Positions 1,890 to 58,110 of a stretch of DNA of 64,000 bases are shown here, one piece after another. The DNA lies in IMG/VR virus record IMGVR_UViG_3300025018_000136, positions 13,062 through 77,061 of that record; one strand, written 5' to 3'. The notes under the pieces were generated by a model. The model saw only the letters and a list, made by a program, of their open reading frames with translations. It was not told the DNA's origin and did not search any database. The stretch comes from a virus. Its lineage: Duplodnaviria; Caudoviricetes. Made by a program: the position numbers and the translations under genes. The stretch's first letter is position 1. Every line of letters begins with the position of its first letter.

Positions 1890-2266
1890 GAATAGCGATT
1901 ATAGGAAGTAGAGAATATCCAGATAAGGATAAAGTTATTAGGTTGCTCGATTATTTTGTTGAGCAATATGATGATTTTATTCTTGTTACTGGTGGCGCTA
2001 GAGGAGTAGATACTTGGGCAATTGATTATTGCGGAGATAATAATATAGATGTTGAAATTATTAGACCACTAAACCCAAACAAAAAAATAGATTATTTGTT
2101 TAGGAACGTGGAGATAATTACTAAAGCGGATTTAATAGCGGCTTTTTGGGATGGTAAAAGTAGTGGTACAAAATTCGTTATAGATTATGCTGTTGGAAGA
2201 GGTAATAAGGAGTTGATGGTGTATGAAACTGATATGGATAATGGCGGCGTTGATTCTGTTTACTAG
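1886..2266 (+). CDS. SLOG/YspA-like (DUF2493-type) nucleotide-binding protein
   Basis: RIAIIGSRE, LVTGGARGVD and IAAFWDGKSSGT motifs; ATGA coupling to RNR. Confidence 0.8.
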   Translation: MRIAIIGSREYPDKDKVIRLLDYFVEQYDDFILVTGGARGVDTWAIDYCGDNNIDVEIIRPLNPNKKIDYLFRNVEIITKADLIAAFWDGKSSGTKFVIDYAVGRGNKELMVYETDMDNGGVDSVY

Positions 2267-2441
2267 TTGTGTACCAATAGGTAAAGAAGAACACAGTTTC
2301 TTTATCGACAACTATACAGATTGTAAATATAAATGTATGAATGATTATACTAATTACAATTGTTCAAAATACGTTTATGAATGGGTGGAAGTAAATAAGA
2401 CAGGTAATTGTACATGTAGTGTTGGTGGGTGTTTAATATGA
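2223..2441 (+). CDS. Small Cys-rich secreted lipoprotein
   Basis: Signal peptide ending FTSC (lipobox-like), seven further Cys, N-X-S/T sequons NYT, NCS, NKT, NCT. Confidence 0.6.
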   Translation: MKLIWIMAALILFTSCVPIGKEEHSFFIDNYTDCKYKCMNDYTNYNCSKYVYEWVEVNKTGNCTCSVGGCLI

Positions 2442-3400
2442 GTGATGTGTGGAAAGAATTTCTAAAACCAGTAAAGATTAATAAAGACCAACGGACGAAG
2501 ATTCTTGCTGGTAAAGCTGGTTCTCATGCTGGAAAAGTTAAATTAATAAGTATCTTTGGTAAGATTCCAGACACTATCTGGGATGTTAAACATACAGAAA
2601 AACTTGACATGGGAGAAAGAACTCAACAAAAAGTTTCTACTGAGCATCGTAATGATACGCTTAAGACTTTTGATAATTCTACAAGAAATCAGAATGTTAG
2701 ATGGAAAGGTGCTATAAGTATTTTCCCTAAAGGAATACTAGACCAGTTACTTGATTTCTACACTGAAAGAGGGGATGTATTCTTTGACCCTTTCGCAGGA
2801 CACAATTCTAGAATGGAAGCTTCTTTTAGAAAAGGACGACATTATATTGGTTATGATTGTAGTCATGATTTTATGGAATTTAATAGGGAAGTAGCCTCAA
2901 AACTTCTTAAAGACAACCCAGAAAAGATGACAATTAAGTTACATGAGAAAGATAGTAGACTTATTGATGACCCAGACAACAGTATAGATTTCATTTTTAG
3001 TTCTCCTCCTTACTGGAATATTGAATGGTATGGAGATGAAAAGGAACAGCTTGGAAATCTTTCATATGAAGATTTTATGAAAGACATTACAGACATCTAT
3101 GCTCAATGCTATCGTGTTCTTAAGCCTGGAAAATTCTGCATCATTAATGTTAATGACTTCAGAAAGGGGGGAGAATACTATAGTTATCACGTTGATACTG
3201 TTAACGCTTTAAAAAGCGTTGGTTTCAAACAATACGATATGGTTATTATGAAGTATGCTAATGCTATGCGTAAGAGTTTTCCAAACCAGATTTGGGAAGA
3301 GAAGCTCATGCCAAAAAGTATAGAATACATTATAGTTATGTATAAGCCACCAGAAGGACCTCATAGCGCGGTTTATCCATTCACACCAAAAGAAAAATGA
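2438..3400 (+). CDS. DNA N4-cytosine/N6-adenine methyltransferase
   Basis: SAM-binding DPFAGHNS followed by catalytic FSSPPY; ATG at 2438 overlaps the upstream stop. Confidence 0.85.
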   Translation: MSDVWKEFLKPVKINKDQRTKILAGKAGSHAGKVKLISIFGKIPDTIWDVKHTEKLDMGERTQQKVSTEHRNDTLKTFDNSTRNQNVRWKGAISIFPKGILDQLLDFYTERGDVFFDPFAGHNSRMEASFRKGRHYIGYDCSHDFMEFNREVASKLLKDNPEKMTIKLHEKDSRLIDDPDNSIDFIFSSPPYWNIEWYGDEKEQLGNLSYEDFMKDITDIYAQCYRVLKPGKFCIINVNDFRKGGEYYSYHVDTVNALKSVGFKQYDMVIMKYANAMRKSFPNQIWEEKLMPKSIEYIIVMYKPPEGPHSAVYPFTPKEK

Positions 3401-4029
3401 TAAAGAATGAAGATTATAGGGAAACTGTAAAACATCTTGGTGAAGTAGATTACGTATTCACTGTGCCACCAGATTTTGATGAACTTGGTCTTAATCCAAA
3501 AACTCAATTAAAAGATTATTATGAGTTCATATACGAATTATTATATCATATGACTAATTGTTCAGACTTAATAACCATTGCTATCACTGATAGGAAATTT
3601 GATGGCGGAATAATTCCTAAGCATATGGTTATCATGGAACATATGATTGAACATTTTAAATGGAAATTGTTGTCCCATAAGATTTGGCATAAAAGCCCTA
3701 AACGAAATCTTTATAGATTAAATTATACTCATATAATGACTTTTTATTGGGGTGAAAAACCAAAACAAACACATCATAATCTTTATGAGTATGATGTTTA
3801 TATAGATAAAGAAGACAAGTTCCACAAATATCCATATGGTATAGCTTTAGGCGTTGTTGATAAACTTATTAAGAATTTTCAAGAAGTAGAAGTAGTTTAT
3901 GACCCATTTATGGGAAGTGGAACTACTGCTGTAGCATGTGTAATGAATGGAAAACGTTATGTGGGCAGCGAGATTAATAAAGAATATTTTGATTTATCTC
4001 AAGCAAGATTAAAACAACAGGTGATATAA
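3397..4029 (+). CDS. Beta-class DNA methyltransferase-like protein with atypical motif IV
   Basis: N-terminal FTVPPD at the motif IV position; C-terminal YDPFMGSGTT...YVGSEIN (motif I). Confidence 0.75.
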   Translation: MIKNEDYRETVKHLGEVDYVFTVPPDFDELGLNPKTQLKDYYEFIYELLYHMTNCSDLITIAITDRKFDGGIIPKHMVIMEHMIEHFKWKLLSHKIWHKSPKRNLYRLNYTHIMTFYWGEKPKQTHHNLYEYDVYIDKEDKFHKYPYGIALGVVDKLIKNFQEVEVVYDPFMGSGTTAVACVMNGKRYVGSEINKEYFDLSQARLKQQVI

Positions 4030-4033
4030 ATTG

Positions 4034-4441
4034 ATGAAAACAGTTGCAGTAAGTGGATATTTTGACCCTCTTCATGTAGGACATCTAGAATACTTTAAGC
4101 TGGCAAAACAACTTGGCGATAGACTTGTAGTAATTGTGAATAATGATGAACAAGCAAAACTTAAGAAAGGTAAATCTTTTATGTCTGAAGAAGATAGAGT
4201 TGCAATTATTAAAGAACTTAAAGTAGTAGACGAAGTGTTTTTATCTATTGACGACGATTCTTCTGTTTGTAAGTCTTTAACTTTTATACACCCTGAAGTT
4301 TTTGCTAATGGGGGAGATAGAAAGAATCACGAAGTTCCAGAAACACAGGTGTGCAGAGAATTAAATATTGTTATAGTTGATGGTCTCGGAGAAAAAATAA
4401 GAAGTAGTTCTGAGATTATCGGAGAAATTAAAAATGAATAA
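4034..4441 (+). CDS. Cytidylyl/adenylyltransferase (TagD/RfaE-C-like)
   Basis: VSGYFDPLHVGH (HxGH), LVVIVNND, FANGGDR, SSS motif. Confidence 0.88.
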   Translation: MKTVAVSGYFDPLHVGHLEYFKLAKQLGDRLVVIVNNDEQAKLKKGKSFMSEEDRVAIIKELKVVDEVFLSIDDDSSVCKSLTFIHPEVFANGGDRKNHEVPETQVCRELNIVIVDGLGEKIRSSSEIIGEIKNE

Positions 4442-4874
4442 ACTTTTTTATATAATTGGAATTGTTGTTTTACTCTCTTTGATGTTTGTTTTTGCATATG
4501 ATTTCACCATTGTAAATGAAGGGAATGGTTGGTATTCATTCCCAGAAGGGAGCAATGTAACAGTTAATGGAGATAGCGTTGATAACTTCATATTTAGCGG
4601 AAGTATATGCGCATACGAATATAATAATGTTAGTTATGAGTGTATGATTGATGCATGGGATGAAATTGTTGTAACTATACCTACAAACTATACATATCTT
4701 GTTACAAATCAACTAATAGGAGACTTGATTGGTGAATATTGGGATAATTGTGAAAATTGGGGCGTATCACAATTTATTTATTGGTTTAACACGCATTATT
4801 ATAAAGCAGATATTAACAGCGATGGTTTTTGGAATCTAATTGATGTTGGTATGTATGCTCAAAACTACATGTAA
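4434..4874 (+). CDS. Secreted/membrane protein with C-terminal dockerin-like Ca-binding loop
   Basis: N-terminal hydrophobic segment; ADINSDGFWNLIDVG; sequons NVT, NVS, NYT. Confidence 0.55.
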   Translation: MNKLFYIIGIVVLLSLMFVFAYDFTIVNEGNGWYSFPEGSNVTVNGDSVDNFIFSGSICAYEYNNVSYECMIDAWDEIVVTIPTNYTYLVTNQLIGDLIGEYWDNCENWGVSQFIYWFNTHYYKADINSDGFWNLIDVGMYAQNYM

Positions 4875-4882
4875 GATATAAA

Positions 4883-14337: not shown

Positions 14338-15903
14338 ATGGATAAAACAAAGATACTTGTTGGAGCTTTAACTCTTGCAGTTGCTTTAGCCGTAGTTTTT
14401 GCTGTTGGCATGTTCAATAGAATGAACGACGATGAAGTAAATGCTGTTCTAGCTGAACAAAAAGTACTTGTTCAAGAGGAGTATAAAGCTTCACTAGACA
14501 GTGCTAAAGAGTTGTTTCGACAAGAAATAGACGCAAAAGTAGCGGATTACGAAAGTAAGCTTTCCGAAAAGGAAACAGATATTGCCGCTAAAGCTGAAGA
14601 GATTGACGCATTGAACGCAGAAATTGCTGCGCTCGATGATGAGGTTACTCAGCTACAAGAACCAGCAGTAGATGAATTCGTTGGTTACACCTTTGATGGA
14701 GTCGCTTTTGATGGCAACTTTGAAGGTACAATTGACAACGGAGACCTTGCTAAACTGTTAGAAGACGAAATTCGATACGATGGCGAAAATTATGATTTTG
14801 AGGAAGTCCTATATCTTAGCGAAGACCTCTTGCCATTGTTAAATCTAGAAGGATTCGATGGTGCAGTTGGCCTTGGTATCACATCAGATAATGCAATCAT
14901 CTACAAGTATGTTTTCGACGACCTAATCGTTGTTGATGGAAGTGAAGAGGAATTAGACATTACTTTCCTTGGAGCACCACTAACTATTATTGATTTCGAC
15001 GGAAGCGAACTTACATATAGAACATCTGCAGAGCTTGCAGGCAGTACTGGAGACTCATTTGAAGTTGAGGGTAAAACTGTAACTATTATTGCTGTTAGTG
15101 ATAATTCAGCTCTTATTGATGTTGATGGTGTTGCTAAAGCTGTAGACGAAGGAAACGCACGAACTATTAATGGTGTGCGTGTAGAAGTTAATGAGGTTTT
15201 CACTTCAGACTTCTCAGATTATACATACGTTAAATTCTTTGTTGGCGACGAAATTTCAGAGACTGTTGAGACAGGTGATGAATATACAGCCGATGATAGA
15301 TATGAGTGGATTGTAGAATCTGACGCTATCGGTGTAGCACTTGTAGAGCAGTATGACGACGAAGATGAAGCATTTAAAGTTGGAGATAGCATCTCTCTAC
15401 CAAACGATTACGTAACGTTTAAGTTTGGTGAAGTCCTTGGACTCGATTATGAAGATGTTAAATTCAAGATTTCTGGAAATGACCTTGATGTTTCCTTTAC
15501 AGGAGATATTGAGATTAATGGAAAGAGAATAGATGATGCAAAGTTTAGTGTCGACCTAGATACTCTTGAGTACGAATACAAATATAAGGACGATAAATTT
15601 GTAGAATCAGACTTTAGTTTGATTAAGTTTGTCTTCGACGACCGCAGTGACTTTGATTTCTCAGTTGCTGGTGGAGAAGTTTCACTCTCTGGTGATAAAG
15701 ACTACGTTTTCGCATACAGTGGAAACGAGTTTGTTGAATCACTTGCTGATGCAACTAATATGAACGAAGATGACCACTATCTATTAGTTAATGGAGACTT
15801 GCTTTACAAGTCATCTGTGAACGAAGACGATGGCTACAAAGAGGTTGAGTTTGGACTTGTCAAAGACCTTGGCGACGTTGAAGCACAACTATTCGTTTAT
15901 TAG
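14338..15903 (+). CDS. S-layer-like protein (DPANN type) with N-terminal membrane anchor and coiled-coil stalk
   Basis: TM segment, about 80 aa coiled coil, then acidic beta-rich region with DLAKLLED..YDFEE, YKYVFDD..LDITFLG and GDSFEVEGKTVTIIAVSDNSALIDVDG..TINGVRVEV, resembling Woese-/Pacearchaeota S-layer proteins. Confidence 0.7.
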   Translation: MDKTKILVGALTLAVALAVVFAVGMFNRMNDDEVNAVLAEQKVLVQEEYKASLDSAKELFRQEIDAKVADYESKLSEKETDIAAKAEEIDALNAEIAALDDEVTQLQEPAVDEFVGYTFDGVAFDGNFEGTIDNGDLAKLLEDEIRYDGENYDFEEVLYLSEDLLPLLNLEGFDGAVGLGITSDNAIIYKYVFDDLIVVDGSEEELDITFLGAPLTIIDFDGSELTYRTSAELAGSTGDSFEVEGKTVTIIAVSDNSALIDVDGVAKAVDEGNARTINGVRVEVNEVFTSDFSDYTYVKFFVGDEISETVETGDEYTADDRYEWIVESDAIGVALVEQYDDEDEAFKVGDSISLPNDYVTFKFGEVLGLDYEDVKFKISGNDLDVSFTGDIEINGKRIDDAKFSVDLDTLEYEYKYKDDKFVESDFSLIKFVFDDRSDFDFSVAGGEVSLSGDKDYVFAYSGNEFVESLADATNMNEDDHYLLVNGDLLYKSSVNEDDGYKEVEFGLVKDLGDVEAQLFVY

Positions 15904-15952: not shown

Positions 15953-16393
15953 ATGGAAAATTATATATACTTAATTATAATATTTGTTGTTAATATTTTA
16001 ATCATAATAGTTACAAGAAAACACAGCACAATGGTTGCTGGATTGGATATTACGCTGACTGGATGTTTCTTATCTGGTTATTGGTTAAACTTTTCTTCTG
16101 GTGTATTAATATCCTTATTATTTATGATTAGTAGTTATGTCGCATTAATAGATATTACCCCAACAATGTTAATAACTATCCCAGTATCATTTATAGTTTT
16201 TATATGTGGAACGCTTACAGCCTCAACGAACATACCAATAATGGTAGGAGTCATAATTGGGTTATTATTATATAGTCTTATATCAGACTTGTTAATTTTC
16301 AAGGTTTTTGGAACAGAAGACGTGTTCTTAATAATGTTTTCTGATATTAAAATGTTTGTAAGTAACATATTATTTTTTAGAATATTTTGGTGA
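15953..16393 (+). CDS. Multi-pass membrane protein
   Basis: About five hydrophobic helices. Confidence 0.65.
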   Translation: MENYIYLIIIFVVNILIIIVTRKHSTMVAGLDITLTGCFLSGYWLNFSSGVLISLLFMISSYVALIDITPTMLITIPVSFIVFICGTLTASTNIPIMVGVIIGLLLYSLISDLLIFKVFGTEDVFLIMFSDIKMFVSNILFFRIFW

Positions 16394-17097: not shown

Positions 17098-17367
17098 TTA
17101 TTGTAATGCTGCTCTTCTCTTTGTAAACTGACTATAAATCCAGTCTGCAACAGCAATAACAATTCCAGATACGATTGTAATCGCCTGGTCTAGGTCAGCA
17201 ATTTGTACTCCAATAGCTATAATAGCTATAGGTGTTCCAAGGGAGACCACAGTTGTCATTAATCGTTTCCATTCAGGCCAATCGATGATTCCATCGATAA
17301 ATGCGTTTTCTATCCACCCAAGGACTCCACGCAAAAGTGGAAACAACAGTGCTATATATTCGTTCAT
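17098..17367 (-). CDS. Small membrane protein (holin-like candidate)
   Basis: Two or three hydrophobic helices, basic C-terminus, last gene of the late operon. Confidence 0.45.
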   Translation of the reverse strand: MNEYIALLFPLLRGVLGWIENAFIDGIIDWPEWKRLMTTVVSLGTPIAIIAIGVQIADLDQAITIVSGIVIAVADWIYSQFTKRRAALQ

Positions 17368-17660
17368 TTTTTATCACCCGTGTCTTTTAGACTACATCTC
17401 ATTATGTTTAGTAGTCCTAAAATAAATATGAATTTTGGTATTATTTTAAAATAAAAAGTGTGAAAGACTTCTGGTTTAATTACTATTAAAAAAGAAGATA
17501 GTGCCTCTATAAATATTGTAGTAATAAGTGCTGCTGCACTACCAACAATAATATTTCTATTTGAATTAAAATAAGAGTACCAATAGAGAAATGAAACTAT
17601 TAAGGACACACTTATCAGTGTTATTGACAAACTATACGATACTAAATGTTCCGATATCAT
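17364..17660 (-). CDS. Three-TM membrane protein
   Basis: Hydrophobic helices; coupled. Confidence 0.55.
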   Translation of the reverse strand: MISEHLVSYSLSITLISVSLIVSFLYWYSYFNSNRNIIVGSAAALITTIFIEALSSFLIVIKPEVFHTFYFKIIPKFIFILGLLNIMRCSLKDTGDKK

Positions 17661-17662
17661 TT

Positions 17663-17941
17663 TTATATAACAAACCTCGAAAATACTTCTACCGCCTTTT
17701 CACCCAATGCAAGTAAAGCTAATACAGCTATTAACGCTATGATTAGTTTATAAAACTTACCAGACATAAGTTTCAACAAAACCATTACTTCTCTATTATG
17801 TAATATATTCTGGTCATTCATCTGCAATATGTTATCTGTCATCTTATCTAGCTTTGAAGCTACATCAACCGTCAATTTGGCGTTCATTTTCGAAAGTTCT
17901 TTATATATTTCTATTGCTTCTCTATCTTCCACTATAATCAC
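17663..17941 (-). CDS. Coiled-coil protein with C-terminal TM helix
   Basis: Amphipathic N-terminus, hydrophobic C-terminus; follows the tail hub gene. Confidence 0.5.
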   Translation of the reverse strand: MIIVEDREAIEIYKELSKMNAKLTVDVASKLDKMTDNILQMNDQNILHNREVMVLLKLMSGKFYKLIIALIAVLALLALGEKAVEVFSRFVI

Positions 17942-20900
17942 TTGTAAAGTAAAGTTACACTTTCATATGTAGGAGACGTTGCTGAAGTAGTGCTTCTATG
18001 AAGCTCCATTCTAAATCCAAAGCTACTACCAGTATTCGTGAATGTGTGAACCTCTCCTGGCGTGTAAGTCTCCCAATTGCTACCACCATCAGCAGTAACC
18101 GTATATATATCATTATCTATTAAAAGGTTTGAATAAGTTCTGAACTCGCACTGAGACACAACTTTATCAGTAATTCTAAAATCAGAAGTTGCTGTGCCAA
18201 CAGTAGCTGCTGAGACCAACTTAAGTCTTCCACTAACTTCTTCTGTATTAAGATGAGTCATAATTGATGGGTCTTCGTCAAAATAGACTGTATAACTATT
18301 TTCCATTGAATTAATATTAGATATTGTGTCTCCAATCTCGTCTGGGTTAAGTTTCTCTACAAAGATATCGGATATACCAACGTTCTTCTTAGATATTTCT
18401 ACAGATGTTGTAAACCCACTGTTACTTAAATTATGAGTAAATGATTGAACCCTGTTATATCCAGTTATACCACAATTAGCAACTGTTACAGATATAAGTT
18501 CTCCTGGGTTAAGAGTAGATAAACCATACGATGTAACTTGGCCACTGAAAACATCTTCTATTCCTTTAGCTAGTTCAAAGTCTGCTTTATCTTGAACCTC
18601 GTCTGTTGTAGTAAGGTCTCCATCAGTAATTATAAGGTCTTTAATCCACAAATCTGCTTGTGATGCGTCATCATTTTCAGATTTAAGCAATATAATGTTG
18701 TCCGATTCTTGTTTACCATAAACAAACACTCTGTTTGAAATTGCTGTGTTGTCTTTACCATAACTATTTACACCAATAAGGTTAGAACCATAAGATATAG
18801 ATTCATCATTGTTTATTACATCGTCTTGTGTAAAAGTTCTAAGATACCACTGCTCACCTTCATCAAAATACCACATATAACAGTCTAAGCCAGCACGTTT
18901 AAATATGTCTGTTATTACAGTCCATGCTTTTTTATGCTGATATGAAATATTAATAAGCTCTGTTGGATAATCTGTAACAGATGTAGACCAACTAATTAAA
19001 CCAGTCCCAGGATTATAAGTAGCTTCAGCCCACTCATCTCCATCCCAGAAAACCATAATAATGTCTGGAAAATCATTATATAGAATTTTTCCAACTGATT
19101 CTGCTGCAGTGGCTGCAACATGTGCTCCAGTAATAGTCTTATCAATAAGCTCTGGATAATCACGCCCATCTATATCTATATAGAATCCACTAGACATATC
19201 TGCTCCATAAGATACATTATCAATGTAACCTTTAAATAATAATTGAGCAAGTGTATTTAAGCTAGCATAACGAATAGCGTTTCCTTCATTATATAAAACA
19301 CTTACCTCGTTTTCACTCAATACTCTATTAGTCCAAAGTGCAATCTCGTCTATCTGAGAAGAAAGCCCATAAGAATAAGTCGTAGGAGAACCTATATATT
19401 TAAACGTTAAATCTGCTACCATCATCTCGCCAAAACTATTAATGTGAGAACCATCAATATATAAGTTAACGTTTGCTGAAGTTTGTTCATTATAAAGATT
19501 ACTATAAAGAGTTGTTATCTCATCATCTGTCAACGCTTTATCAAAAACCATAATATCATCTATTAATCCGTTGAAATAATTACCTGACACATATCTCCCA
19601 ACATAGAAATTTAGATTAGTTGCTGAAGGAATATCTGTTCGAATGCTAGTATTTGTTTTATGTTTTATACCATTAACATATCCTATTAATTCATCGTTTG
19701 TTTTACTAACAGTAAACGCAATATGAACCCATTCTCCAAGATAATCATCTATGCCTACAGTGTCGCTAAGAGGATAAAAAGTGTCCCCACCAGTCCCATA
19801 TAATCTAGCATGCCATCTAGAACCAAGAGAATAATTTAAAAGTTCCCATTTTGTAGTATTAGCAACAATTCTACTATCTACAGAAGGAGCAATTGATGCT
19901 TTAACCCATAAAGCTACAGTAAATTCATCATTATCAACATCTTCAAAACTAGAAGTTGAAAGATACGACGTAGAACCATTAAAGCTCATACAAGAATTTA
20001 CAGAATTAAATCTGTTAGTACCATCAGTTGCGTTAGTATTGGTTAAAGAACCCCCATAACTACTAAAATCATCAATAGTTGTAGATAAATCGTTATAAGA
20101 AAACGGATAATAACATCTTAAAGTAGCATCTGTCATATCCCAAGGAGTAGTTGTTGTTAATACAACATGATGCCAGGCAGTATCATTAAGTGTATCACTA
20201 TCACCTATAGATACTATAGCATTATTAACATCTGGCTCTATTCTAATATCGTTCCCGCTATCTATCTCAAAATGCCTATTGAAAGAATTTGGCGCATAAT
20301 TAAAAATAGTTTCATGCTTACCCTCTTCGCCACGTTTAATCCAGAAAGATATTGTAGAACCATTTTTATTAATAACAACATAATCAGTTAATTCTACATA
20401 TGAATTAAAATAACCATTAATATTATATTTTTGGCCTAACATATCTAAACTAGAAACTATCTTTCCAGTTGTATTATACGGAATAGTCATTCTATGATTA
20501 TTTGTTATAGTGTATAATTTGCTAACTTCAGAGTCTGTTAACATAGATTTCACAAAGAATACGTCATCTATGTAACCCTCAAAAGTAGAAGGTGCAATAT
20601 GATTAGAAGTAATATTTCCACCAATTTCAGCATTTCCTGCTCCATTACAAGTTTTAAAATCTGGATACAACACATTTGTTCCTTCTAAAACTCCATCTGC
20701 GTATACATAAATTCTTTTAGATATTCTTATATCATCATTACCGTCATTATAAATCTGTAATATCTCATCGTCTGTCAGTGCCCTAGCCCAAATAGCAACA
20801 TCGTCAATAGCTCCATCCATAAGATTAGTTGTAGAATCATATGCTCCTATGTTTAAAGTTGTGCTTGTAGTAGCGTTTCCTCCAGTAACAGTAGTTGTTA

Positions 20901-26389: not shown

Positions 26390-26391
26390 TT

Positions 26392-33463: not shown

Positions 33464-33476
33464 AATATTTTCACCT

Positions 33477-36171: not shown

Positions 36172-36460
36172 TTAATCTTCCTATAATTACAGGCGTTTCA
36201 ACTTCATCACTTATAATGGTAATATTCTCAGTTTCTATGTCTGAAACGCTAATTATTTGTGTTCTTTCTGGAACAGTAGTAACACTCATTAAAGTATCAC
36301 CAAAACCAGAAGCAGACTTTATTATTGGTATTTCTGGAGAAGAAACACTAGACATAACTATTAAAGGACCAGTATAAGTATTAAACTGTGTTTCTGGATT
36401 TATAAATCCATAAATAGAGTTACCATATACACCAACACCATAATATGCAGATATGGTCAT
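36155..36460 (-). CDS. Putative virion accessory protein
   Basis: YYGVGVYGNSIYG glycine-aromatic motif; coupled. Confidence 0.45.
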   Translation of the reverse strand: MTISAYYGVGVYGNSIYGFINPETQFNTYTGPLIVMSSVSSPEIPIIKSASGFGDTLMSVTTVPERTQIISVSDIETENITIISDEVETPVIIGRLKNQKI

Positions 36461-50591: not shown

Positions 50592-50939
50592 ATGGAAGGA
50601 TTTTATTTATCATATCGAACTATTGATGCAAAAAGTAATACGTTGTTAAACCACTCTTTGTATGGTAGATTGGTATACAGAAATTACAAAGGTAAGCGTT
50701 ACGCTTCTTATGTTTCTGGAATGTTGCATAATATTCCATTTTCAAGAATAAAGAATTCTACTGTTTTTTTAAAAACTCTGGACGGTATAGATTTAGAAAT
50801 GTTAAAAATCTTTGGTGATGCAACTATTGAACGTGGTTTTCTTGAAAAATGTGAATTTGAAACAGCAGAAGAACACTGGAAAAAAATAGTTAACGAAAAA
50901 GGCTTGGTGATGAAATATGGCAGAAACAAGAAAAGGTAA
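50592..50939 (+). CDS. Hypothetical protein (possible ferredoxin-like fold)
   Basis: FYLSY...SLYG...GML..IP..RI..STVF pattern. Confidence 0.5.
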   Translation: MEGFYLSYRTIDAKSNTLLNHSLYGRLVYRNYKGKRYASYVSGMLHNIPFSRIKNSTVFLKTLDGIDLEMLKIFGDATIERGFLEKCEFETAEEHWKKIVNEKGLVMKYGRNKKR

Positions 50940-51489
50940 AGGCAATGTAATGAAAATTGTAGAACTTGGTTTAGATAACCGAGTATACAATGAAATGAAG
51001 AAGCCTGGTTTTTCTGCAGAAGCACTAGCAAGAGAACTAACAATAGAAGGAATTCCTATAACAGCCCAGTCAATAAGAAAATTTATAAAGAATACTAAGA
51101 CTGCTCAACAAAAAATAATACAGCAAGATTTACAAGTAGCTGAACAGGTTAAAGCATTAACTATTGATTATACAAATGAATTAAAATCTATCTTAGATGA
51201 AGTACAAGAAGTTAAAAACGAAGCTAAAGACGAAAAAGACTTAACAACGTACAATCAGCTAATTGGTAGAATTTTTCAAGGTATAGAATTATTAGCTAAA
51301 CTTAGTGGTGATATCAAACCAAAAGGTTCTGTTGATATAAATATAATTTATCAGGAAATAAATACAGATATTGAACGTCAAATGAGAGATGTAAAAAAAG
51401 ACATGTTTCAGGACGTTATTGATGTTGATGCGGAGATAATAAAGGAAGATAAAAAATATCAAGATAGTATGGTCGCACAACCCTTATAA
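50917..51489 (+). CDS. Putative terminase small subunit
   Basis: N-terminal HTH-like segment, helical core ending IELLAKLSGDI; co-oriented with TerL. Confidence 0.55.
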   Translation: MAETRKGKGNVMKIVELGLDNRVYNEMKKPGFSAEALARELTIEGIPITAQSIRKFIKNTKTAQQKIIQQDLQVAEQVKALTIDYTNELKSILDEVQEVKNEAKDEKDLTTYNQLIGRIFQGIELLAKLSGDIKPKGSVDINIIYQEINTDIERQMRDVKKDMFQDVIDVDAEIIKEDKKYQDSMVAQPL

Positions 51490-52095: not shown

Positions 52096-53172
52096 ATGGC
52101 AAACATTGGTTTTCTCAGTTATTGGGGGTGGGGCAGGGGTCAGGCTTATGTTACTCTTGGATATGTTAAGATGCTTCAAGGAGAACACAACTGTTTTGTT
52201 TTAAACCAAGTTGTTAACGATTTTGAAAAAGAAAAAGAATTTGAAGAAGTGGAAGTTTCAGTCACAGACGTAAAAGGATATTTTGTCGACCCAGAAGTAT
52301 TCAAAATGTGGATTGAAACAAACAAGCTTGATGCTGTAGTATTTAACGAGTATGACCAATGGTCTAAAGACTCAAATGATTTGGTACAAATAGCTAGAGA
52401 TATGGGTTGTAAAGTTTATGGTTTTCTTGTTTTGGAAAAATATAAAGCTGGTCAGGCTGAAAGATATGATAGAGTTTTTGCTCCAACAGTTTCTAGTGTT
52501 AGATTCTATCGTTGGAGAAAGGTAAGAAATTTTTCTTATATACCTTTTTCTGTTGACTTAAAAAAACATAATAGATTAATTGAAGAAAACGAAAAGTTTA
52601 CATTCTTTCATCCTGGGGGAATGCTTGGTGTTAGAGGCAGAAAAAATACGAGAGACGTAATAGAAGCATTTGAATATCTTGCTGGTGATAAAGAAGATTT
52701 TGGAGCTGAATTAATTATAACATCTCAAGTCTCACTTCAGTTCAACAGAGAAGTTCATCCTAATATAAAATTTATTCATGGAAATCAGACTAAAGAAGAA
52801 ATTAACAGGTTATATGCTCAAGCCGATTTTCTTGTATATCCAACTAAATGGGAAACCATAGGAATTGGAGTAATAGAAGCAATGGCTTCAGGCACACCAT
52901 CTATAGTAACAGATATTCCACCATTAAACGAATTTATTATACCAAACAAGAATGGTTTTTTGGTAGGAGTTGATTTAATAAGATATCCAGAAGTAGAATG
53001 TATGGCCGCAGAAATAGATTACAAAGAGCTTTCTCAAAAGATGGAACTTGCTATGAATCCATTGTTCACAGGTATGATGAAAAAGAATGCGAAGTACATA
53101 GCAGAAAAAATTTATAATATTGACAAAAATAAACATTATATGCTTGATTTCTTAAAGGGTGATTTAGAGTGA
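52096..53172 (+). CDS. Glycosyltransferase family 4
   Basis: FFHPGG..RKN, ADFLVYPTKWETIGIGVIEAMASGTP. Confidence 0.88.
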   Translation: MANIGFLSYWGWGRGQAYVTLGYVKMLQGEHNCFVLNQVVNDFEKEKEFEEVEVSVTDVKGYFVDPEVFKMWIETNKLDAVVFNEYDQWSKDSNDLVQIARDMGCKVYGFLVLEKYKAGQAERYDRVFAPTVSSVRFYRWRKVRNFSYIPFSVDLKKHNRLIEENEKFTFFHPGGMLGVRGRKNTRDVIEAFEYLAGDKEDFGAELIITSQVSLQFNREVHPNIKFIHGNQTKEEINRLYAQADFLVYPTKWETIGIGVIEAMASGTPSIVTDIPPLNEFIIPNKNGFLVGVDLIRYPEVECMAAEIDYKELSQKMELAMNPLFTGMMKKNAKYIAEKIYNIDKNKHYMLDFLKGDLE

Positions 53173-53903
53173 AAGATTTAATAATTGGTTATGGTGAGAT
53201 TGGTAAAAGTATTGGAAAAGTTTTAGAACAAGCTGGTGTAGATTATGATGCGTTCGACAACGCATTTCCGTGCGCTGTAGAAGGAGATTATAATGTTATG
53301 CATGTGTGTGTACCATTTTCAAAAAAGTTCGTTAAATCGATTTTAAACTATGTAGGATTGCATCGACCAAATTACGTAGTGATTCACAGTACAGTAGACA
53401 TTGGCACAACAAGAAAATTACAAGAAAAAAGCGAATCGGGGTGGTTTGTGCATTCTCCAGTAGTAGGAGTTCATCCAAATCTTTATGACGGATTAATCAC
53501 ATTCACAAAATTTTTTGGTGCACCAATACAACAGGCTGCAGAAGACATGTCCAATTATTTCAATCTAACATTAGGATTAAATACAAGAGTAATGGAATCT
53601 TCAGAAACTACTGAAATGGCAAAACTTTTGAGCACAACATATTATGGGTGGAATATAACTTTTAATAAAGAAGTTGCTTTACTTTGTGACGAGTATGGTT
53701 TGGATTTTAATCAAGTTTACAATGAGTGGAATGAGAATTATAATCGAGGGTATAAAATATTAAATATGAATAATGTTATTCGTCCTATACTAAAATATGT
53801 CCCTGGTAAAATTGGCGGTCATTGCATAATGCCAAACGTAGAAATTCTTAAAAACAAATTTAGTATAGCTAAGATTATTAAAAAATTAAGTAGGAAGTGG
53901 TGA
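53169..53903 (+). CDS. Short NDP-sugar dehydrogenase (UDP-glucose/GDP-mannose dehydrogenase family)
   Basis: IIGYGEIG, HSTV..GTT, EMAKL, IGGHC; lacks the C-terminal domain. Confidence 0.8.
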   Translation: MKDLIIGYGEIGKSIGKVLEQAGVDYDAFDNAFPCAVEGDYNVMHVCVPFSKKFVKSILNYVGLHRPNYVVIHSTVDIGTTRKLQEKSESGWFVHSPVVGVHPNLYDGLITFTKFFGAPIQQAAEDMSNYFNLTLGLNTRVMESSETTEMAKLLSTTYYGWNITFNKEVALLCDEYGLDFNQVYNEWNENYNRGYKILNMNNVIRPILKYVPGKIGGHCIMPNVEILKNKFSIAKIIKKLSRKW

Positions 53904-53908
53904 AAAAT

Positions 53909-54928
53909 ATGAAAATAAATGAAAGAAAAACCGCTTTGGTGACTGGTTGTGCAGGTATGGATGGTTCTTATCTTTGTGAAAAACTTTTAAATAAAAGATA
54001 TAAAGTTATAGGAATTGATAGATGGAACGCAACAGGGATGTCTCCAAACATGAAAACGTTTGTAGATAATCCAAACTTTGAATTTGTAACAGGTGACATT
54101 ACAGAACGAGATTTTATTTATCGTTTATTTAGAGATAATCATATCGATTATTTTTATAATATGGCTGCTATTAGTCTAGTTCCAGAATCGTTTAAAATAC
54201 CACAGAAAGTATTCGAAATAAATACAATTGCTGTAATTAACATTCTAGAAATTATAAGAAGTTATTCTCCTCATACACGTTTTTATCAGGCAAGTACTTC
54301 TGAACAGATTGGTAAGAATACTGAACCATTACAGAACACAGAAAGTAAGATGATACCAAATAGTCCTTACGCAATTGCTAAGTTGGCTAGTTATCACATG
54401 GTTCGTCTTTATAGAGAAGCTTATGGTCTTTTTGCTTGTAATGGCATGCTTTGGAATCATGAGGGTCCTAGAAGAGGGCCTACATTTGTAACTAGAAAAA
54501 TTACAATTGGTGTTGCAAACATTTTTAGAGGATGGCAAGACGTAATAGAACTTGGTAATCTTGATTCTGGAAGGGATTGGGGTCATGCAGATGATTATAC
54601 TGACGCAATGATTATGATGATGGAAGCAGAAGAAGCAGACGATTACGCTGTTGCTACTGGTGAAACACATACTGTTAGAGAGTTTGTTGACGCCGCTTTT
54701 GAAGCAGTAGATATGGATATTACATGGGAAGGAGAAGGATTTAATGAAGTAGCAAAAGATAAGGAAGGAAAAGTGGTTGTCAAAATTAATCCTAATTTTT
54801 ATAGACCAGCAGAAGTTCCAAATTTGAATGGAGATCCCAGTAAAATTAAAGAAAAACTTGGTTGGGAACCAAAAATTAAATTTAAAGAATTAGTTAAAGA
54901 AATGATGAAGGGTGATTTAAATTATTAA
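53909..54928 (+). CDS. gmd: GDP-mannose 4,6-dehydratase
   Basis: ALVTGCAGMDGSYL, FYQASTSE, PNSPYAIAK, WNHEGPRRGPTFVTRKI, LGNLDSGRDWGHA. Confidence 0.93.
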   Translation: MKINERKTALVTGCAGMDGSYLCEKLLNKRYKVIGIDRWNATGMSPNMKTFVDNPNFEFVTGDITERDFIYRLFRDNHIDYFYNMAAISLVPESFKIPQKVFEINTIAVINILEIIRSYSPHTRFYQASTSEQIGKNTEPLQNTESKMIPNSPYAIAKLASYHMVRLYREAYGLFACNGMLWNHEGPRRGPTFVTRKITIGVANIFRGWQDVIELGNLDSGRDWGHADDYTDAMIMMMEAEEADDYAVATGETHTVREFVDAAFEAVDMDITWEGEGFNEVAKDKEGKVVVKINPNFYRPAEVPNLNGDPSKIKEKLGWEPKIKFKELVKEMMKGDLNY

Positions 54929-56003
54929 ACTTGGAGATTTTAAAATTACAAAAAAACAAAAGGATTATGTTAATGAAGTATTAGATAGTAATCGTATTAC
55001 TGAAGGTCCTTTTGTAAAAAGATTAGAAGATGAATTTAAAAAATATTTTGATGTTAAACATGCAATAGTTGTTACAAATGGAACAGTAGCATTACAGTTA
55101 GTTTCAACATATTTAATTCATAAGGAGAAACAAGGATTAAATGTCCTAGTTCCAGCGATGACTTTTCCAGCAACTATAAACGCATTTGTTGTTGGAGGGC
55201 ACTCTGTGGCTCTTTGTGATATAGGAGAAGATTTACAAATAGATATGGATACTATTAGTGAACAGATGATGGAAGAATTGGATGTTCTTGTTCCTGTTCA
55301 TCTTATGGGATACCCAGCAGATATGAAAAAGATTATGGCTCTTAAAGAAAAATATGGTTGGACTGTAGTTGAAGATTCTGCAGAAGCTTTTGGTACTGAG
55401 ATTGATGGTAAGAAAGTTGGAACATTTGGAGATTTTGGAACCTTCAGTTTTTACGTGAGTCATAATATTGCAGCAGGAGAATTAGGATTAGTAATAACTA
55501 ATGATGATGAAGCTGCTAAAATAATGAGAAGTATGAAGAATCATGGTCGTGTTGGAGATAATATGAAGTTCTTGCATGGTTATGTTGGTTCTAATTATAA
55601 GACAAATGAATTTTGCGCAGCTCTTGGTCTTGCAAGTCTTGAAGATTCGAAAGAAACTCTTGCTGCTAGATTAGATAATGCAAAGTTCTTGCATGATTTT
55701 ATTAAAAATGAAAATGTTGAAGTTTTTCCTGTCCCAGACAATGCAAGTTTGCTTGGTTTACCAATTAGATGCAAAGATGAAGAAACAAAAAATGAGTTAG
55801 TTAAAAGACTTAATGATGAAGGTATAGAAACTAGAGACATCTTCCCGAACTTGGCTAATCAGGATGCGTATGAAGAACATTTCAACCCATTTGATTTTCC
55901 AGTAGCAAATAAACTAGAAAAAGAAGTCTTTTATGTTGGTATACATCACTTTTTAAGTTTAGAAGACTTAAAAAAAATAGTTAAAGTTATTAACGGTGAA
56001 TAA
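54921..56003 (+). CDS. DegT/DnrJ-family PLP enzyme with His at the catalytic Lys position (ColD/E1-type 3-dehydratase); probable ATT start
   Basis: TNGTVAL lies upstream of the first ATG; PVHLMG, EDSAEAFG, FSFYVSHNI; frame opens at ATT 54921 after GGTGA. Confidence 0.82.
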   Translation: MIKLGDFKITKKQKDYVNEVLDSNRITEGPFVKRLEDEFKKYFDVKHAIVVTNGTVALQLVSTYLIHKEKQGLNVLVPAMTFPATINAFVVGGHSVALCDIGEDLQIDMDTISEQMMEELDVLVPVHLMGYPADMKKIMALKEKYGWTVVEDSAEAFGTEIDGKKVGTFGDFGTFSFYVSHNIAAGELGLVITNDDEAAKIMRSMKNHGRVGDNMKFLHGYVGSNYKTNEFCAALGLASLEDSKETLAARLDNAKFLHDFIKNENVEVFPVPDNASLLGLPIRCKDEETKNELVKRLNDEGIETRDIFPNLANQDAYEEHFNPFDFPVANKLEKEVFYVGIHHFLSLEDLKKIVKVINGE

Positions 56004-56005
56004 AA

Positions 56006-57067
56006 ATGAAACTTTTATACATAGGTGCTGAAAGCGCAAATTGGGTAATTACTCTATGTAACGAAATGTGTAAACTTGGGCACGAAGTTACCTGTGTTGT
56101 TCAACAAAAAGATGAATATGATGCAGGAACAATTGTTAAATATCATAAGAATCTTACACGTATAAATGTTGAATGGGATGATTTCTTTAATCCTTTGAGA
56201 ATTAAATCTAAACTTGTAAGAGAATTAACAACTAATAAATATGATTGGGTTTTTGGTTCTCATGCTCCTATTAGTCCAGTTGTCGCAGATATTGCAAGGA
56301 CTTATAGGCTTCCATGGGGAATAATGTTATTAGACATACCAAAGGATTTAATGGAACAAGACAGAAATAGAATGTTGCAATGGATTCAATGGTTTGACAT
56401 TTTAAAATATGCTAACGTGATGGTGTTTAACACATATGTAGCTAGAGACTTATATTATGAATATACAAAACAATGGTTTGATGACACCCACGTTATAACA
56501 TATGGAACGTCTTTTAACGAAGAATATTTTATGTCTGGTGTTGGTAAAGATGATAATTATATTTTGAGTATTTGCAGATTAACTAATATGAAAGCTGTTA
56601 GTTCGATAACTAAAGCTCTTGGTGAGTTAAAGAATCCTCCAAAACAAGTTATAATTGGTAGAGATAGGGGGGACCTTAACGAAATAAAATATTTTGCTGC
56701 AGAGAACGGTGTTGATATTGAACATCACGAAAATGTAACAGAAAAAGAGAAATATGAGTTAATTAAGAATTGTACATGTTTAATTTATCCTCAAGAGTCG
56801 GAGTATATAGGAGGATTAAGTCCTTGGGAAGGATTATATGTAGGAAAACCAGTGATTTGTAAGGACTATAAAGTTCTTAGAGAACTTTACAAGGGGGCTA
56901 ACATTATTTATGCTACCCCTTTTAATACAGAAAAACTTACACAAGCAATAGCTATTGTTAGAGAACTTAAAACTTTTGACTTCCTTGTTAAGAAAGATGC
57001 AGAGTTGGCAAAAAGAGAAGCTTCGTTTGAGTATATGGCAAAACAATTAGTGGGGTTGATGAAATAA
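56006..57067 (+). CDS. Glycosyltransferase family 4-like
   Basis: LSICRLTNMK, LIYPQESE..GLSPWEGL..GKPVI. Confidence 0.8.
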   Translation: MKLLYIGAESANWVITLCNEMCKLGHEVTCVVQQKDEYDAGTIVKYHKNLTRINVEWDDFFNPLRIKSKLVRELTTNKYDWVFGSHAPISPVVADIARTYRLPWGIMLLDIPKDLMEQDRNRMLQWIQWFDILKYANVMVFNTYVARDLYYEYTKQWFDDTHVITYGTSFNEEYFMSGVGKDDNYILSICRLTNMKAVSSITKALGELKNPPKQVIIGRDRGDLNEIKYFAAENGVDIEHHENVTEKEKYELIKNCTCLIYPQESEYIGGLSPWEGLYVGKPVICKDYKVLRELYKGANIIYATPFNTEKLTQAIAIVRELKTFDFLVKKDAELAKREASFEYMAKQLVGLMK

Positions 57068-58110
57068 TGGAAATCTTGCTTATAGGAGCGTTTGAAGACC
57101 AACAAACTGGGATTTATATTGCACGCTCAATGTTTGAACTAGAGCATACGGTGGAAGCTATAGATTCTAGAAAATTCTTTCAAGAATTAGGGTCTATAGA
57201 AAGTCAAAAAGCAATAATTGCCGAGATAGACGATTATGCAACACAATATTATCCTAAAATGATAATGATTCTTAAAGGATTAGAACTTCATCCCGCTACT
57301 ATACAATACTTAAAAGAAAAATTTCCTGATGCAAAATTAGTGAATTGGTTTTTTGATGTTTATTTAGGAGAAGAACCAATTTGGAAAGCAAAAGAATATT
57401 TATCAGTAATAAAAATGTTTGATTATTATATTTGTAGTCTTAAAGGTGTTGCTGATAAACTGAGAGAAGATGGTTTTGATAATGTTTATTATGTTGACGA
57501 AGCTTGTTATCCGCAATCTAATGGTGAAGTTCATATGAATTGGTATCAAACTGTAAAATATGGTAATGATGTTTCATTTGTTGGCGCATTAGGATATTTA
57601 AAACAACATTCTAATAGGACAAAAATCTTAAAAAAAGTGTCTAAAGAATGTTTTAATTTATCAATTTGGGGGCCTATTGTTGAAGACTGGACTAAAATAG
57701 GCGTAGAACTTAAACCTCATCATCGTGGTAAGTCAGTTATTAATGAGACACATAGTATGGTTGCTCAATCAAGTCTAATTAATCTTGGAATAGACCAGAA
57801 TAGGGATATAGATATGGGGCATAGTGCTAGACTTTATAGGGTTATGTGTGCTGGAGGTTTATATTTACTTAATGCTACTAAAGGAGTAGATAAAATGTTT
57901 AAAGTTAATAAGGATGGAGCTGAGATTACTGGGGATGAAGAATTAGTTTTTTATTATAGTGAGGACGATTTAATTAACAAAATTGATTTTTTACTTGAAC
58001 ACGACGACATAAGAAAAAAGATTGCTAAAAATGGTCAGAAAGCAGTTTTAGAAAAACACAAATTCACTGGCCGAATAAATGAGATAATAGAATTAATAGG
58101 TGAAAAATAA
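57067..58110 (+). CDS. CgeB-like GT-B glycosyltransferase
   Basis: DVSFVG, SLINLGI, SARLYRVMCAGG, LINKIDFLL..RKKIAKNGQ. Confidence 0.82.
   Translation: MEILLIGAFEDQQTGIYIARSMFELEHTVEAIDSRKFFQELGSIESQKAIIAEIDDYATQYYPKMIMILKGLELHPATIQYLKEKFPDAKLVNWFFDVYLGEEPIWKAKEYLSVIKMFDYYICSLKGVADKLREDGFDNVYYVDEACYPQSNGEVHMNWYQTVKYGNDVSFVGALGYLKQHSNRTKILKKVSKECFNLSIWGPIVEDWTKIGVELKPHHRGKSVINETHSMVAQSSLINLGIDQNRDIDMGHSARLYRVMCAGGLYLLNATKGVDKMFKVNKDGAEITGDEELVFYYSEDDLINKIDFLLEHDDIRKKIAKNGQKAVLEKHKFTGRINEIIELIGEK

Follow-up and report, generated by a model that had tools for sequence, protein, structure and literature searches.

Phage T5 Llp and F-plasmid TraT are receptor-masking, or superinfection-exclusion, proteins. 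In archaea, S-layer proteins serve tailed viruses as primary receptors, and receptor masking has been proposed for a small S-layer-like protein encoded on a mobile element (bioRxiv 10.1101/2022.10.18.512658). Among the auxiliary genes described for DPANN viruses, those for glycosyltransferases and nucleotide sugars have been linked to the surface (PMC12647753). The window analysed here, 64 kb of a linear, 77-kb tailed-virus record, carries both an S-layer-like gene and an island of glycan genes. From homology, architecture, gene order and distribution, we put at about even the chance that these are two independent modules of one archaeal virus: a virion glycosylation cassette and an S-layer mimic inserted into the cell envelope.

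The record encodes TerL, portal, major capsid protein (MCP), tail tube, tape measure, PolB and RNR, and upstream of the window are genes for an intein-containing RadA/Rad51 and an RFC-like clamp loader; its replication genes are of archaeal type. The virus occurs in aquifer and groundwater metagenomes. It is probably an archaeal, siphovirus-like groundwater virus whose host is a DPANN archaeon of Woesearchaeales type; the DPANN host named in the initial annotation is thus plausible, as a Woesearchaeota-type host, by homology rather than by CRISPR spacers. The same annotation called the system integrated. Read as a provirus, this is unsupported, because the linear viral contig has no host flank along its 77 kb and no integrase was found among the ORFs scanned; Pfam scans of the record's ORFs likewise returned no signs of lysogeny. 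Comparisons with relatives were made against five genomes by tblastn and, for distribution, against nine related records, or ten when the distant virus G211 is added.

The S-layer-like gene (14338..15903, plus strand) encodes an acidic protein of 521 aa (24% D+E, no Cys) with a transmembrane segment at residues ~5-26, a coiled coil at ~31-106 and beta-rich S-layer-type domains at ~114-521; its AF2 model has a pLDDT of 92.8. The resemblance to S-layer proteins, originally noticed by eye, reflects real homology to archaeal S-layer-type proteins: the stretch of residues ~117-376 aligns at 30-33% identity with the central part of S-layer-type proteins from Woesearchaeota. BLASTP E-values are 2e-28 and 2e-29 for two of these, P0125 and P0113, both of which combine a signal peptide and a YPxPF motif with a PF05124 domain that is split. 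Relatives of P0125 occur in MAGs titled Woesearchaeota and Nanoarchaeia. The viral protein has no match to Pfam DUF1608, but in two independent searches the DUF1608 domain of a Methanosarcina S-layer protein came out as the top PDB match of its model (Foldseek E 1e-5; VIA Z 9.0 over 214 residues that span model positions 114-521). In the viral protein, the transmembrane anchor and the 75-residue coiled coil take the place that a signal peptide and PF05124 have in the cellular form. The gene is probably derived from the central domains of a host-type S-layer protein in which these parts were swapped for a membrane anchor and a ~11-nm coiled-coil stalk. We infer that the infected cell displays the product at S-layer height, where it would mask or mimic an S-layer receptor, leading to superinfection exclusion and protection of progeny, or would disturb the lattice.

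The family to which this protein belongs is large (635 or more clusters; 774 representative clusters matched). Among the best 150 of the 774 matching clusters, nearly every one shows an anchor or lipobox at the N-terminus and a helical region after it. The Atlas cluster that holds the viral protein is 96% viral. An S-layer match was found in 26 of 201 Woesearchaeales genomes, in every case to ORFs of 550-800 aa that align only to viral residues ~114-391, and the anchored, virus-type architecture was absent from the 201 genomes searched. Between viruses whose MCPs share 64-84% identity the S-layer-like gene is only 28-34% identical, and in a tree its five copies from the clade are scattered. 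It is present in five of the nine related records, and could not be found in G003 even with a 77-sequence profile search; G003 has direct terminal repeats at both ends, yet a CheckV completeness of 71%. On these comparisons the gene is accessory, fast-evolving and dispensable in G003.

Both this dispensability and the extreme divergence, a trait seen more often in genes for receptors or exclusion, count against the possibility that the protein is instead an egress factor, a poison subunit or tethered patches that break the S-layer lattice together with small transmembrane neighbours. In its favour, the literature reports neither a lysis system for archaeal tailed viruses nor an S-layer protease, and the gene does abut small proteins with 1-5 transmembrane segments. 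Directly 3' of it lies a 146-aa protein with ~5 predicted segments (15953..16393, plus strand) for which tblastn detected no homologue in the relatives, followed by three small membrane proteins with which the tail operon ends (17098..17941, minus strand); they have 1-3 segments each and are holin-like by size and topology only. One of the latter (17098-17367) is kept beside the S-layer-like gene, its homologues adjoining that gene in G001 and G004. In this window, however, the S-layer-like gene stands at the end of the plus-strand replication block, outside the tail and holin-like operon, and we regard a role in egress as rather unlikely.

The glycan island (52096-58110) lies on the plus strand within the packaging and morphogenesis block. 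Its upstream border is a conserved 190-aa gene (50917..51489, plus strand) that is kept in all five relatives, has no diagnostic Pfam match and is called a putative terS by position only; downstream is the large terminase gene (58339..60024, plus strand). The first island gene encodes a GT4-type glycosyltransferase (52096..53172), 30-49% identical to its counterparts in 5/5 relatives, and the second a truncated and divergent NDP-sugar-dehydrogenase-like Rossmann protein of 244 aa (53169..53903); both are core genes of the clade. These are followed by Gmd, a GDP-mannose 4,6-dehydratase (53897..54928; Pfam 1.9e-116, 390 bits over the full length; TIGR01472 346 bits), and a DegT-fold enzyme of the ColD/E1-type PMP-dependent 3-dehydratases (54921..56003) in which His replaces the Schiff-base Lys (SFYVSH). 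By sequence the latter is nearer to aminotransferases (7b0d, 8e-40) than to ColD (2gms, 1.5e-19). A second GT4-type enzyme (56006..57067) and a CgeB-like glycosyltransferase (PF13524; 57067..58110), a hallmark of the clade and invariably the last island gene before terL, complete the island. The deoxysugar pathway that had been read from the sequence is thus borne out by Gmd and the ColD-type enzyme, while the four glycosyltransferases proposed with it reduce to three, Pfam scans of all larger ORFs of the 77-kb record having revealed no fourth. The ColD-like frame is open from 54921 with its first ATG, GTG or TTG only at 55158, and no ColC/Fcl-type reductase was recognised; given both, the pathway may be incomplete here. 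The product would be a GDP-mannose-derived 3,6-dideoxy-type sugar, and the three soluble glycosyltransferases would transfer sugars to an acceptor that we infer to be a late cytoplasmic protein, most likely the virion capsid, tube or fibres, in the way that virions of mycobacteriophages and chloroviruses are glycosylated.

Among relatives the island keeps its position between putative terS and terL, and both its flanking genes and the CgeB-like glycosyltransferase were found in 9/9 related records. A CgeB-like gene was found in 5 of the 201 Woesearchaeales genomes, at no more than 37% identity, and in G211 a GT1 gene lies 2 kb away from the gene for the MCP. Island content differs from relative to relative, including a heptose pathway, a pyruvyl transferase, methyltransferases, radical SAM and GT2 proteins. 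No relative's island contains a multi-transmembrane protein, each coding-strand ORF having at most one predicted segment, and therefore none encodes a flippase, polymerase, oligosaccharyltransferase or initiating transferase. Encoding only soluble enzymes and placed in the packaging block, the island is characteristic of the whole virus clade.

It is conceivable, at perhaps one chance in several, that the island enzymes act independently of the S-layer-like gene on lipid-linked or S-layer glycans of the host, and so exclude competitors in the manner of serotype conversion. GT4 enzymes often use lipid-linked acceptors, and archaeal N-glycans are assembled on dolichol phosphate by peripheral cytoplasmic glycosyltransferases, so that islands free of transmembrane proteins are compatible with modification of host glycans via the host's flippase and AglB. 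Hypervariable content, as in O-antigen loci, would likewise agree with an arms race over receptors at the host surface, and the tails suggest that these receptors are glycans. A 1842-aa tail protein with both ends conserved among relatives (17938..23466, minus strand) has six LamG_3 (ConA-like lectin) stretches with pentaxin and sialidase-N-like matches, in agreement with the lectin-armed tails described previously. Next to it are three paralogous fibre-like genes, alike at their N-termini and different at their C-termini (23469..27450, minus strand), with no homologue in the relatives by tblastn, and a 255-aa LamG-domain protein is encoded between the head and tail genes (36457..37224, minus strand). 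Against modification of host glycans are the want of any GtrA/GtrB/GtrC-type or other membrane component in the islands, the lack of lysogeny signs noted above, and the status of the island as core to the clade in a late-operon position.

Other viruses encode glycosyltransferases that attach a variety of glycans to DNA, according to Pyle et al. 2024 as cited in PMC12619734, and the genome of the virus studied here has two DNA methylases and several Vsr/HNH-type nucleases. Sugar hypermodification of viral DNA to evade restriction nonetheless seems very improbable: a ThyA-type dNMP hydroxymethylase was not found in the record or in the five relatives, and the sugar chemistry of the islands, with a dideoxy sugar derived from GDP-mannose, a pyruvyl transferase and a heptose pathway, is typical of glycoconjugates rather than of modified DNA.

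The remaining candidate components lie near the start of the window. A small nucleotidyltransferase (4031..4441, plus strand; phrog_7878 3.9e-27) was initially annotated as a cytidylyltransferase, and Pfam confirms it as CTP_transf_like (1.2e-16). Its best match is to RfaE domain II/heptose-1-P adenylyltransferase at 79.6 bits, below the 181.5-bit cut-off, so that this match does not fix its specificity, and its neighbours are DNA-methylase and replication genes. Of two proteins previously described as secreted and sequon-rich, the description suits a 72-aa, Cys-rich ORF without a Pfam match (2223..2441, plus strand), which has a lipoprotein-like signal (MKLIWIMAALILFTSC), eight Cys and four sequons where 0.72 would be expected (P=0.002 by shuffling, before correction for ~67 ORFs). 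This ORF, which overlaps a DNA methylase gene (2429-3400) and may be strain-specific, was left out of the tblastn query set. The description does not hold for the other (4434..4874, plus strand): this protein of 146 aa, which has a hydrophobic anchor or signal at its N-terminus and no family match, is not enriched (three sequons against 1.7 expected); nor are sequons enriched when pooled over the window (159 observed against 171 expected). Neither the nucleotidyltransferase nor the 4434-4874 ORF has a homologue in the relatives by tblastn, and both appear to be strain-specific extras outside the two modules.

The initial annotation had joined all of these parts in a single system, in which the S-layer-like protein, glycosyltransferase island, nucleotidyltransferase and secreted proteins replace both protein canopy and glycan, exclude competitors and perhaps alter the contact of the DPANN cell with its own host. 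Every type of component is present, the S-layer homology is real, and the S-layer-like gene and glycosyltransferases occur together in six of ten related records, G211 included, a co-occurrence interrupted by G003, which has an island without the S-layer-like gene, the kind of separation that the initial annotation had itself named as counting against its proposal. We nevertheless find the joint system unsupported and doubtful, because 36 kb separate the loci, which belong to different gene blocks; they are inherited separately, with island flanks in all nine records and the S-layer-like gene in five; N-X-S/T sequons are missing from the viral S-layer-like protein, which therefore cannot be an N-glycan acceptor (its cellular homologues are not enriched either, with 84 observed against 88 expected); export and lipid-carrier components are missing from all islands; and two of the proposed parts are the extras described above. 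The island, moreover, is a core feature of the packaging block and no variable moron.

How do the two modules compare with described systems? The island and the GDP-L-colitose pathway (Gmd, ColD, ColC) have in common Gmd and a DegT-fold enzyme with His for Lys, and differ in the reductase and in the start codon of the ColD-like gene. GtrABC serotype-conversion cassettes are likewise virus-encoded glycosylation genes able to alter surface receptors, as the island could be; unlike them, it has no flippase, bactoprenol- or dolichol-linked glycosyltransferase or integral-membrane glycosyltransferase, and it lies away from an attachment site. The loci for mycobacteriophage virion glycosylation (Freeman et al. 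2023) and those of marine archaeal viruses, where glycosyltransferase genes adjoin MCP or tail genes, have soluble glycosyltransferases in or beside the structural block, as here. What sets the present, putative virion glycosylation cassette apart is its place between terL and a putative terS, a nucleotide-sugar pathway of its own and high variability among relatives.

For the S-layer-like protein, the likeness to the DUF1608 domain of Methanosarcina acetivorans MA0829 (PDB 3u2g/3u2h), its best structural match, is at the level of fold only (12% identity, rmsd 5.5 A). With the PF05124 (S_layer_C) proteins of Woesearchaeota/Nanoarchaeia MAGs it shares homologous central beta-rich domains over ~200-315 residues and an acidic composition, in contrast to which it is ~200 aa shorter, anchored, stalked and free of sequons, and lacks the Sec signal peptide, the N-terminal YPxPF motif and both PF05124 halves. 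Hlac_3088 of Halorubrum lacusprofundi is a small protein that also resembles S-layer proteins; it is host- or plasmid-encoded and has a C-terminal PGF-CTERM anchor, and the role suggested here for the viral protein would be comparable. Together with T5 Llp and TraT, Hlac_3088 belongs to a set of masking or exclusion proteins that, like the putative viral mimic, are membrane-anchored, encoded on mobile elements and proposed to hide a receptor.

The gene that the initial annotation had called S-layer-like (14338-15903, plus strand) proved to be a true homolog of archaeal S-layer proteins by BLASTP and genome matches, beyond resemblance. A word-indexed search with its 521-residue product recovered two close homologs only, while a profile search of 1.84 billion representatives matched 774 clusters (635 at E<=1e-10). 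BLASTP of viral against cell-type S-layer proteins gave 30-33% identity (E 2e-28 and 2e-29), and relatives of one cell-type family member, P0125, sit in MAGs titled Woesearchaeota and Nanoarchaeia. Matches occur in 26 of 201 Woesearchaeales genomes, those listed all being ORFs of 550-800 aa that align to residues ~114-391 of the viral protein only; the form with a transmembrane (TM) segment plus coiled coil was not found in these 201 genomes. PF05124 ('S-layer like family, outer domain') is carried by 3 of the 77 family members scanned, and where it was located, in the cell-type proteins P0054, P0113, P0125 and P0161, it is split into N- and C-terminal parts with the virus-homologous region between them. 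The viral protein has no PF05124 profile match, Sec signal peptide or YPxPF segment; it begins with a hydrophobic anchor of 21 residues, after which comes the coiled coil.

An AlphaFold model built on a 77-sequence alignment (pLDDT 92.8, as against 45 with 3 sequences) consists of a TM helix, a single helix over residues 31-106 and, beyond it, beta domains. Both Foldseek on the PDB and an independent all-against-all aligner ranked first the DUF1608 domain of MA0829, an S-layer protein of Methanosarcina acetivorans (Foldseek E 1e-5, TM 0.22/0.35; VIA Z 9.0 over 214 residues, rmsd 5.5 A), at 12% identity and with a VIA Z barely above the background range. The ESM Atlas returned S_layer_C clusters of Aenigmatarchaeota and Methanobacteriota, plus a 176-member cluster that is 96% viral. 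Other searches added little: tblastn against cultured phages gave no match, a BFVD fold search nothing meaningful (TM <0.15), a profile search of PDB sequences coiled-coil noise only, and a further protein search with the 77-sequence profile four matches, swamped by coiled-coil words. Given the BLASTP, genome matches and ESM Atlas clusters together, 'S-layer-like' here is homology, though the family-defining features are absent, and the protein is most fittingly called a stalked, membrane-anchored viral derivative of the central S-layer domains. A literature search of incomplete coverage found no description of a virus-encoded S-layer homolog.

The best 150 family matches are almost all 450-590 aa long, with an N-terminal anchor or lipobox and then a helical region. 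Among viruses with capsid proteins that are 64-84% identical, the S-layer-like proteins are 28-34% identical. In a tree of the shared S-layer domain, a quick ML tree only, the five copies from the clade are scattered amid other viral-type sequences, and 15 of 16 cell-type sequences cluster apart, with one nested amid viral ones. The central domain of P0054, a cell-type protein with a signal peptide, YPTPF and PF05124, lies deep within the viral-type sequences in this quick tree, and its position suggests more than one transfer of the S-layer domain between cells and viruses. The family proteins P0045, P0067, P0082, P0111 and P0114 have a third architecture: they are ~700 aa long, and their S-layer-type domain is preceded by a signal peptide and an N-terminal beta region of another kind. 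They form their own fully supported clade; another family protein, P0001, is also present on a 98-kb contig. Sequons are mildly depleted in viral-type members (345 observed vs 478 expected) and neutral in cell-type members (84 vs 88). The viral gene stands at the end of the plus-strand replication block, is followed by a gene for a 5-TM protein, and faces three small TM proteins that terminate the tail operon. One of these small membrane proteins is conserved and adjoins the S-layer-like gene in three viruses (17098-17367, minus strand, in the window; 6928-7194 and 24210-24506 in the related records G001 and G004), preceded in the latter two by a short ORF with an archaeal TRAM-domain-like motif, as judged by eye.

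The S-layer is the only wall of most archaea and serves archaeal tailed viruses as a primary receptor, and we know of no account of how archaeal tailed viruses block superinfection or exit through it. Homology and the anchor-stalk-domain architecture lead us to propose that the viral protein would be displayed at S-layer height on the infected cell. Tailed viruses of haloarchaea have S-layer proteins as their primary receptor, a small S-layer-like protein of a mobile element has been proposed as a receptor mask, and no lysis system is known for archaeal tailed viruses; on these grounds we rank receptor masking or mimicry first, as a tentative choice. Ranked second, and unlikely in our estimate, is disruption of the lattice by the protein for egress; if true, with such a lattice-opening role it would be the first candidate for an exclusion or egress factor directed at the S-layer in any archaeal tailed virus. 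With receptor masking still preferred, the wider picture that we put forward, with some reserve, is that DPANN tailed viruses have a large, virus-specific, fast-evolving family of captured host S-layer central domains on an anchor and coiled-coil stalk, and that the infected cell would show a counterfeit S-layer element at lattice height that blinds competing and progeny virions to the receptor or opens the lattice for release. This membrane-tethered family of hundreds of clusters is a concrete candidate for superinfection block or egress; its anchored form was not found in the 201 host-order genomes searched.

The second module is a glycan island at 52096-58110 (plus strand), which contains a GT4 glycosyltransferase (GT), a truncated NDP-sugar-dehydrogenase-like protein, Gmd, a DegT-fold enzyme, a second GT4 and a CgeB-like GT. 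Of the four GTs and deoxysugar pathway first reported in this virus, Gmd and a ColD/E1-like enzyme are indeed present, but the GTs number three. Gmd matches PF16363 over positions 1-332 of 332 (1.9e-116) and scores 346 bits against TIGR01472, under the equivalog cut-off of 415. In the DegT-fold enzyme a His replaces the Schiff-base Lys (SFYVSH vs SFYPTK of 7b0d), and this His is kept in the homologs of G001, G002 and G004. The swap is common to the viral enzyme and the PMP-dependent 3-dehydratases ColD and E1, although the viral sequence is nearer the aminotransferase (7b0d, 8e-40; E1 3bcx, 7.5e-27; ColD 2gms, 1.5e-19). The ColD-like frame, open from 54921 (ATT ATT AAA ...), overlaps the stop codon of Gmd and matches full-length homologs from their N-termini on; its first ATG/GTG/TTG is at 55158, with none before codon 78. 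The absent start codon could mean that the gene has a non-canonical start, is translationally coupled or is decaying, or it could be a sequencing error. DegT matches are present in 105 of 201 Woesearchaeales genomes (a tally that takes in the unpublished genomes G130 and G191, on which no conclusion depends) at <=43% identity, too unspecific for a colitose-type sugar of the host to be read from them.

Capsid-based searches yielded eight related IMG/VR records of 23-111 kb, five of which were taken whole. In all five the island lies between a conserved 190-aa gene, a putative terS, and terL, starting near the dehydrogenase-like gene and first GT4 and ending at the CgeB-like GT. The latter is present in nine of nine clade records, three further records included, and is rare and distant in Woesearchaeales (5/201 genomes, <=37% identity). 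The middle of the island is different in every virus: in G002 it holds an FkbM methyltransferase, an SDR and an intein-bearing ColD-like gene, together with a heptose-type set (nucleotidyltransferase, GHMP kinase, SIS isomerase and HAD phosphatase); in G003 a UDP-GlcNAc 2-epimerase, a rhamnosyl O-methyltransferase, two GT2s, a radical SAM enzyme and a pyruvyl transferase; and in G004 further GT1s, methyltransferases, an aminotransferase and a radical-SAM/SPASM enzyme. G004 also has a Gmd homolog (62% identity) outside its terS-terL island, at 18398-19426 in the replication block, 2.7 kb upstream of its S-layer-like gene. In G211, a virus more distantly related (capsid profile E 1e-30), there is an S-layer-like gene and also, 2 kb away from the capsid gene, a GT1 gene. 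An earlier report (PMC12647753) had described GT and nucleotide-sugar genes of DPANN viruses as auxiliary genes related to the surface; the cassette described here, with conserved ends and a hypervariable middle between the putative terS and terL, marks a whole virus clade.

Several smaller ORFs had been grouped with these genes. Of two ORFs taken for sequon-rich secreted proteins, 2223-2441 is real and sequon-enriched (72 aa, a lipoprotein-like signal, eight Cys, 4 sequons vs 0.72 expected; P=0.002, uncorrected), and a larger listed ORF, a DNA methylase, starts at 2429; 4434-4874 has a hydrophobic N-terminal segment but no sequon enrichment, and its 'sequon-rich' label was dropped. The window as a whole has no overall sequon enrichment. 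The supposed cytidylyltransferase is a small nucleotidyltransferase at 4031-4441, nearest to RfaE domain II / heptose-1-P adenylyltransferase but well under that equivalog cut-off (79.6 vs 181.5 bits), the sole model passed being the generic cyt_tran_rel domain. Lectin-type domains were verified in the tail proteins. Three consecutive minus-strand genes at 23469-27450 (609, 370 and 352 aa) have N-termini that are alike (MVK..G....S.....S.F.D...) and divergent downstream parts; the relatives have no homolog of any of the three, which look like an exchangeable receptor-binding fibre set.

The initial annotation had joined all of this, from 2223 to 58110, into a single host-surface remodelling system, a proposal that our results do not support. 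The S-layer-like gene is present in five of nine clade records (G000, G001, G002, G004 and G208). It was not found in G003 even with the 77-sequence profile, and direct terminal repeats, usually the mark of a complete genome, bound G003, whose CheckV completeness is 71%; three other S-layer-negative clade records are fragments and uninformative. Since G003 has the island without the S-layer-like gene, the island does not depend on that gene. The two lie 36 kb apart in separate gene blocks, the viral S-layer-like protein contains no N-X-S/T sequon and, as judged from its predicted sequence, cannot accept N-glycans, and neither the nucleotidyltransferase nor the 4434 ORF has a counterpart in any relative searched. 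Each module may act on the cell surface separately, but the data do not carry a unified story, and the two are separate subjects.

The window comprises the final 64 kb of a linear record of 77,061 bp that has no terminal repeats (CheckV completeness 64%). Its structural genes include an intein-bearing portal, major capsid protein, tail tube, tape-measure protein and giant LamG tail protein, and a large terminase at 58339-60024 is matched by tblastn to TerL of Thermus and Halogranum viruses. The window further encodes a family-B DNA polymerase, two N6/N4 DNA methylases and an intein-bearing ribonucleotide reductase (RNR), and the 13 kb upstream add an intein-containing RadA/Rad51, an RFC-like clamp loader, a GMP-reductase-like enzyme and a cobalamin adenosyltransferase. 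Neither integrase nor host flank was seen in the 77,061-bp record, and a provirus reading was dropped on that account; with this gene content, the record is that of a tailed virus, siphovirus-like and with replication genes of archaeal type, and no provirus has been demonstrated. The S-layer-like stretch is present in aquifer and groundwater metagenomes, and the host, judged from homology and habitat only, is probably a Woesearchaeales-type DPANN archaeon. Inteins with a homing-endonuclease domain interrupt RNR (window 3-1889), portal (47106-49769) and RadA (4484-6232 on L001, the handle cited for this intein); that of G002 (32317-34602) lies in the gene for the ColD-like sugar enzyme, which is an unusual place for an intein. 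At 61123-61749 (plus strand, 208 aa) is a match to PF25185, the type I Thoeris inhibitor Tad3 (E 3.2e-31, 108 bits vs a cut-off of 27), an anti-defence family of phages here in a probable archaeal virus and with no homolog found in the five relatives. Family matches on the plus strand also identify a DUF4406 (nucleoside 2-deoxyribosyltransferase-like) protein (60659-60991) and a YspA/SLOG-family protein (1886-2266), which may have nucleotide-modifying or nucleotide-sensing roles.

What the island modifies can be approached through comparison with known systems. Among its coding-strand ORFs in this record and the five relatives, none has more than one predicted TM segment, and a flippase, polymerase, oligosaccharyltransferase or polyprenyl-phosphate transferase, all multi-TM, is absent; serotype-conversion and lipid-linked glycan systems have such components, whereas the viral island does not. 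Action on host glycans made via host export machinery we consider rather improbable. In DNA-glycosylating phages a ThyA-family hydroxymethylase supplies the acceptor base, but no ThyA-type dNMP hydroxymethylase (PF00303) was found in this record or the five relatives by a search whose control was positive in 10 of 14 genomes, which argues against DNA as the acceptor and leaves that reading with very little likelihood. Position in the packaging/morphogenesis block, all-soluble enzymes and clade-wide conservation with variable sugars instead suggest that the enzymes would glycosylate late proteins in the cytoplasm, most likely virion proteins; we put the chance that virions are the acceptor at roughly even. 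Mycobacteriophages are known to glycosylate their virions, marine archaeal viruses with GTs beside capsid or tail genes have been suggested to do so, and the island offers a tractable case for self-encoded glycosylation of archaeal tailed virions. As in virion glycosylation systems, the GT genes of the viral cassette lie in the structural/packaging block. The S-layer-like protein, for its part, shares its central beta-rich domains with the archaeal S-layer proteins of PF05124/PF05123, which have PF05124, a signal peptide and YPxPF, whereas the viral protein lacks all three.
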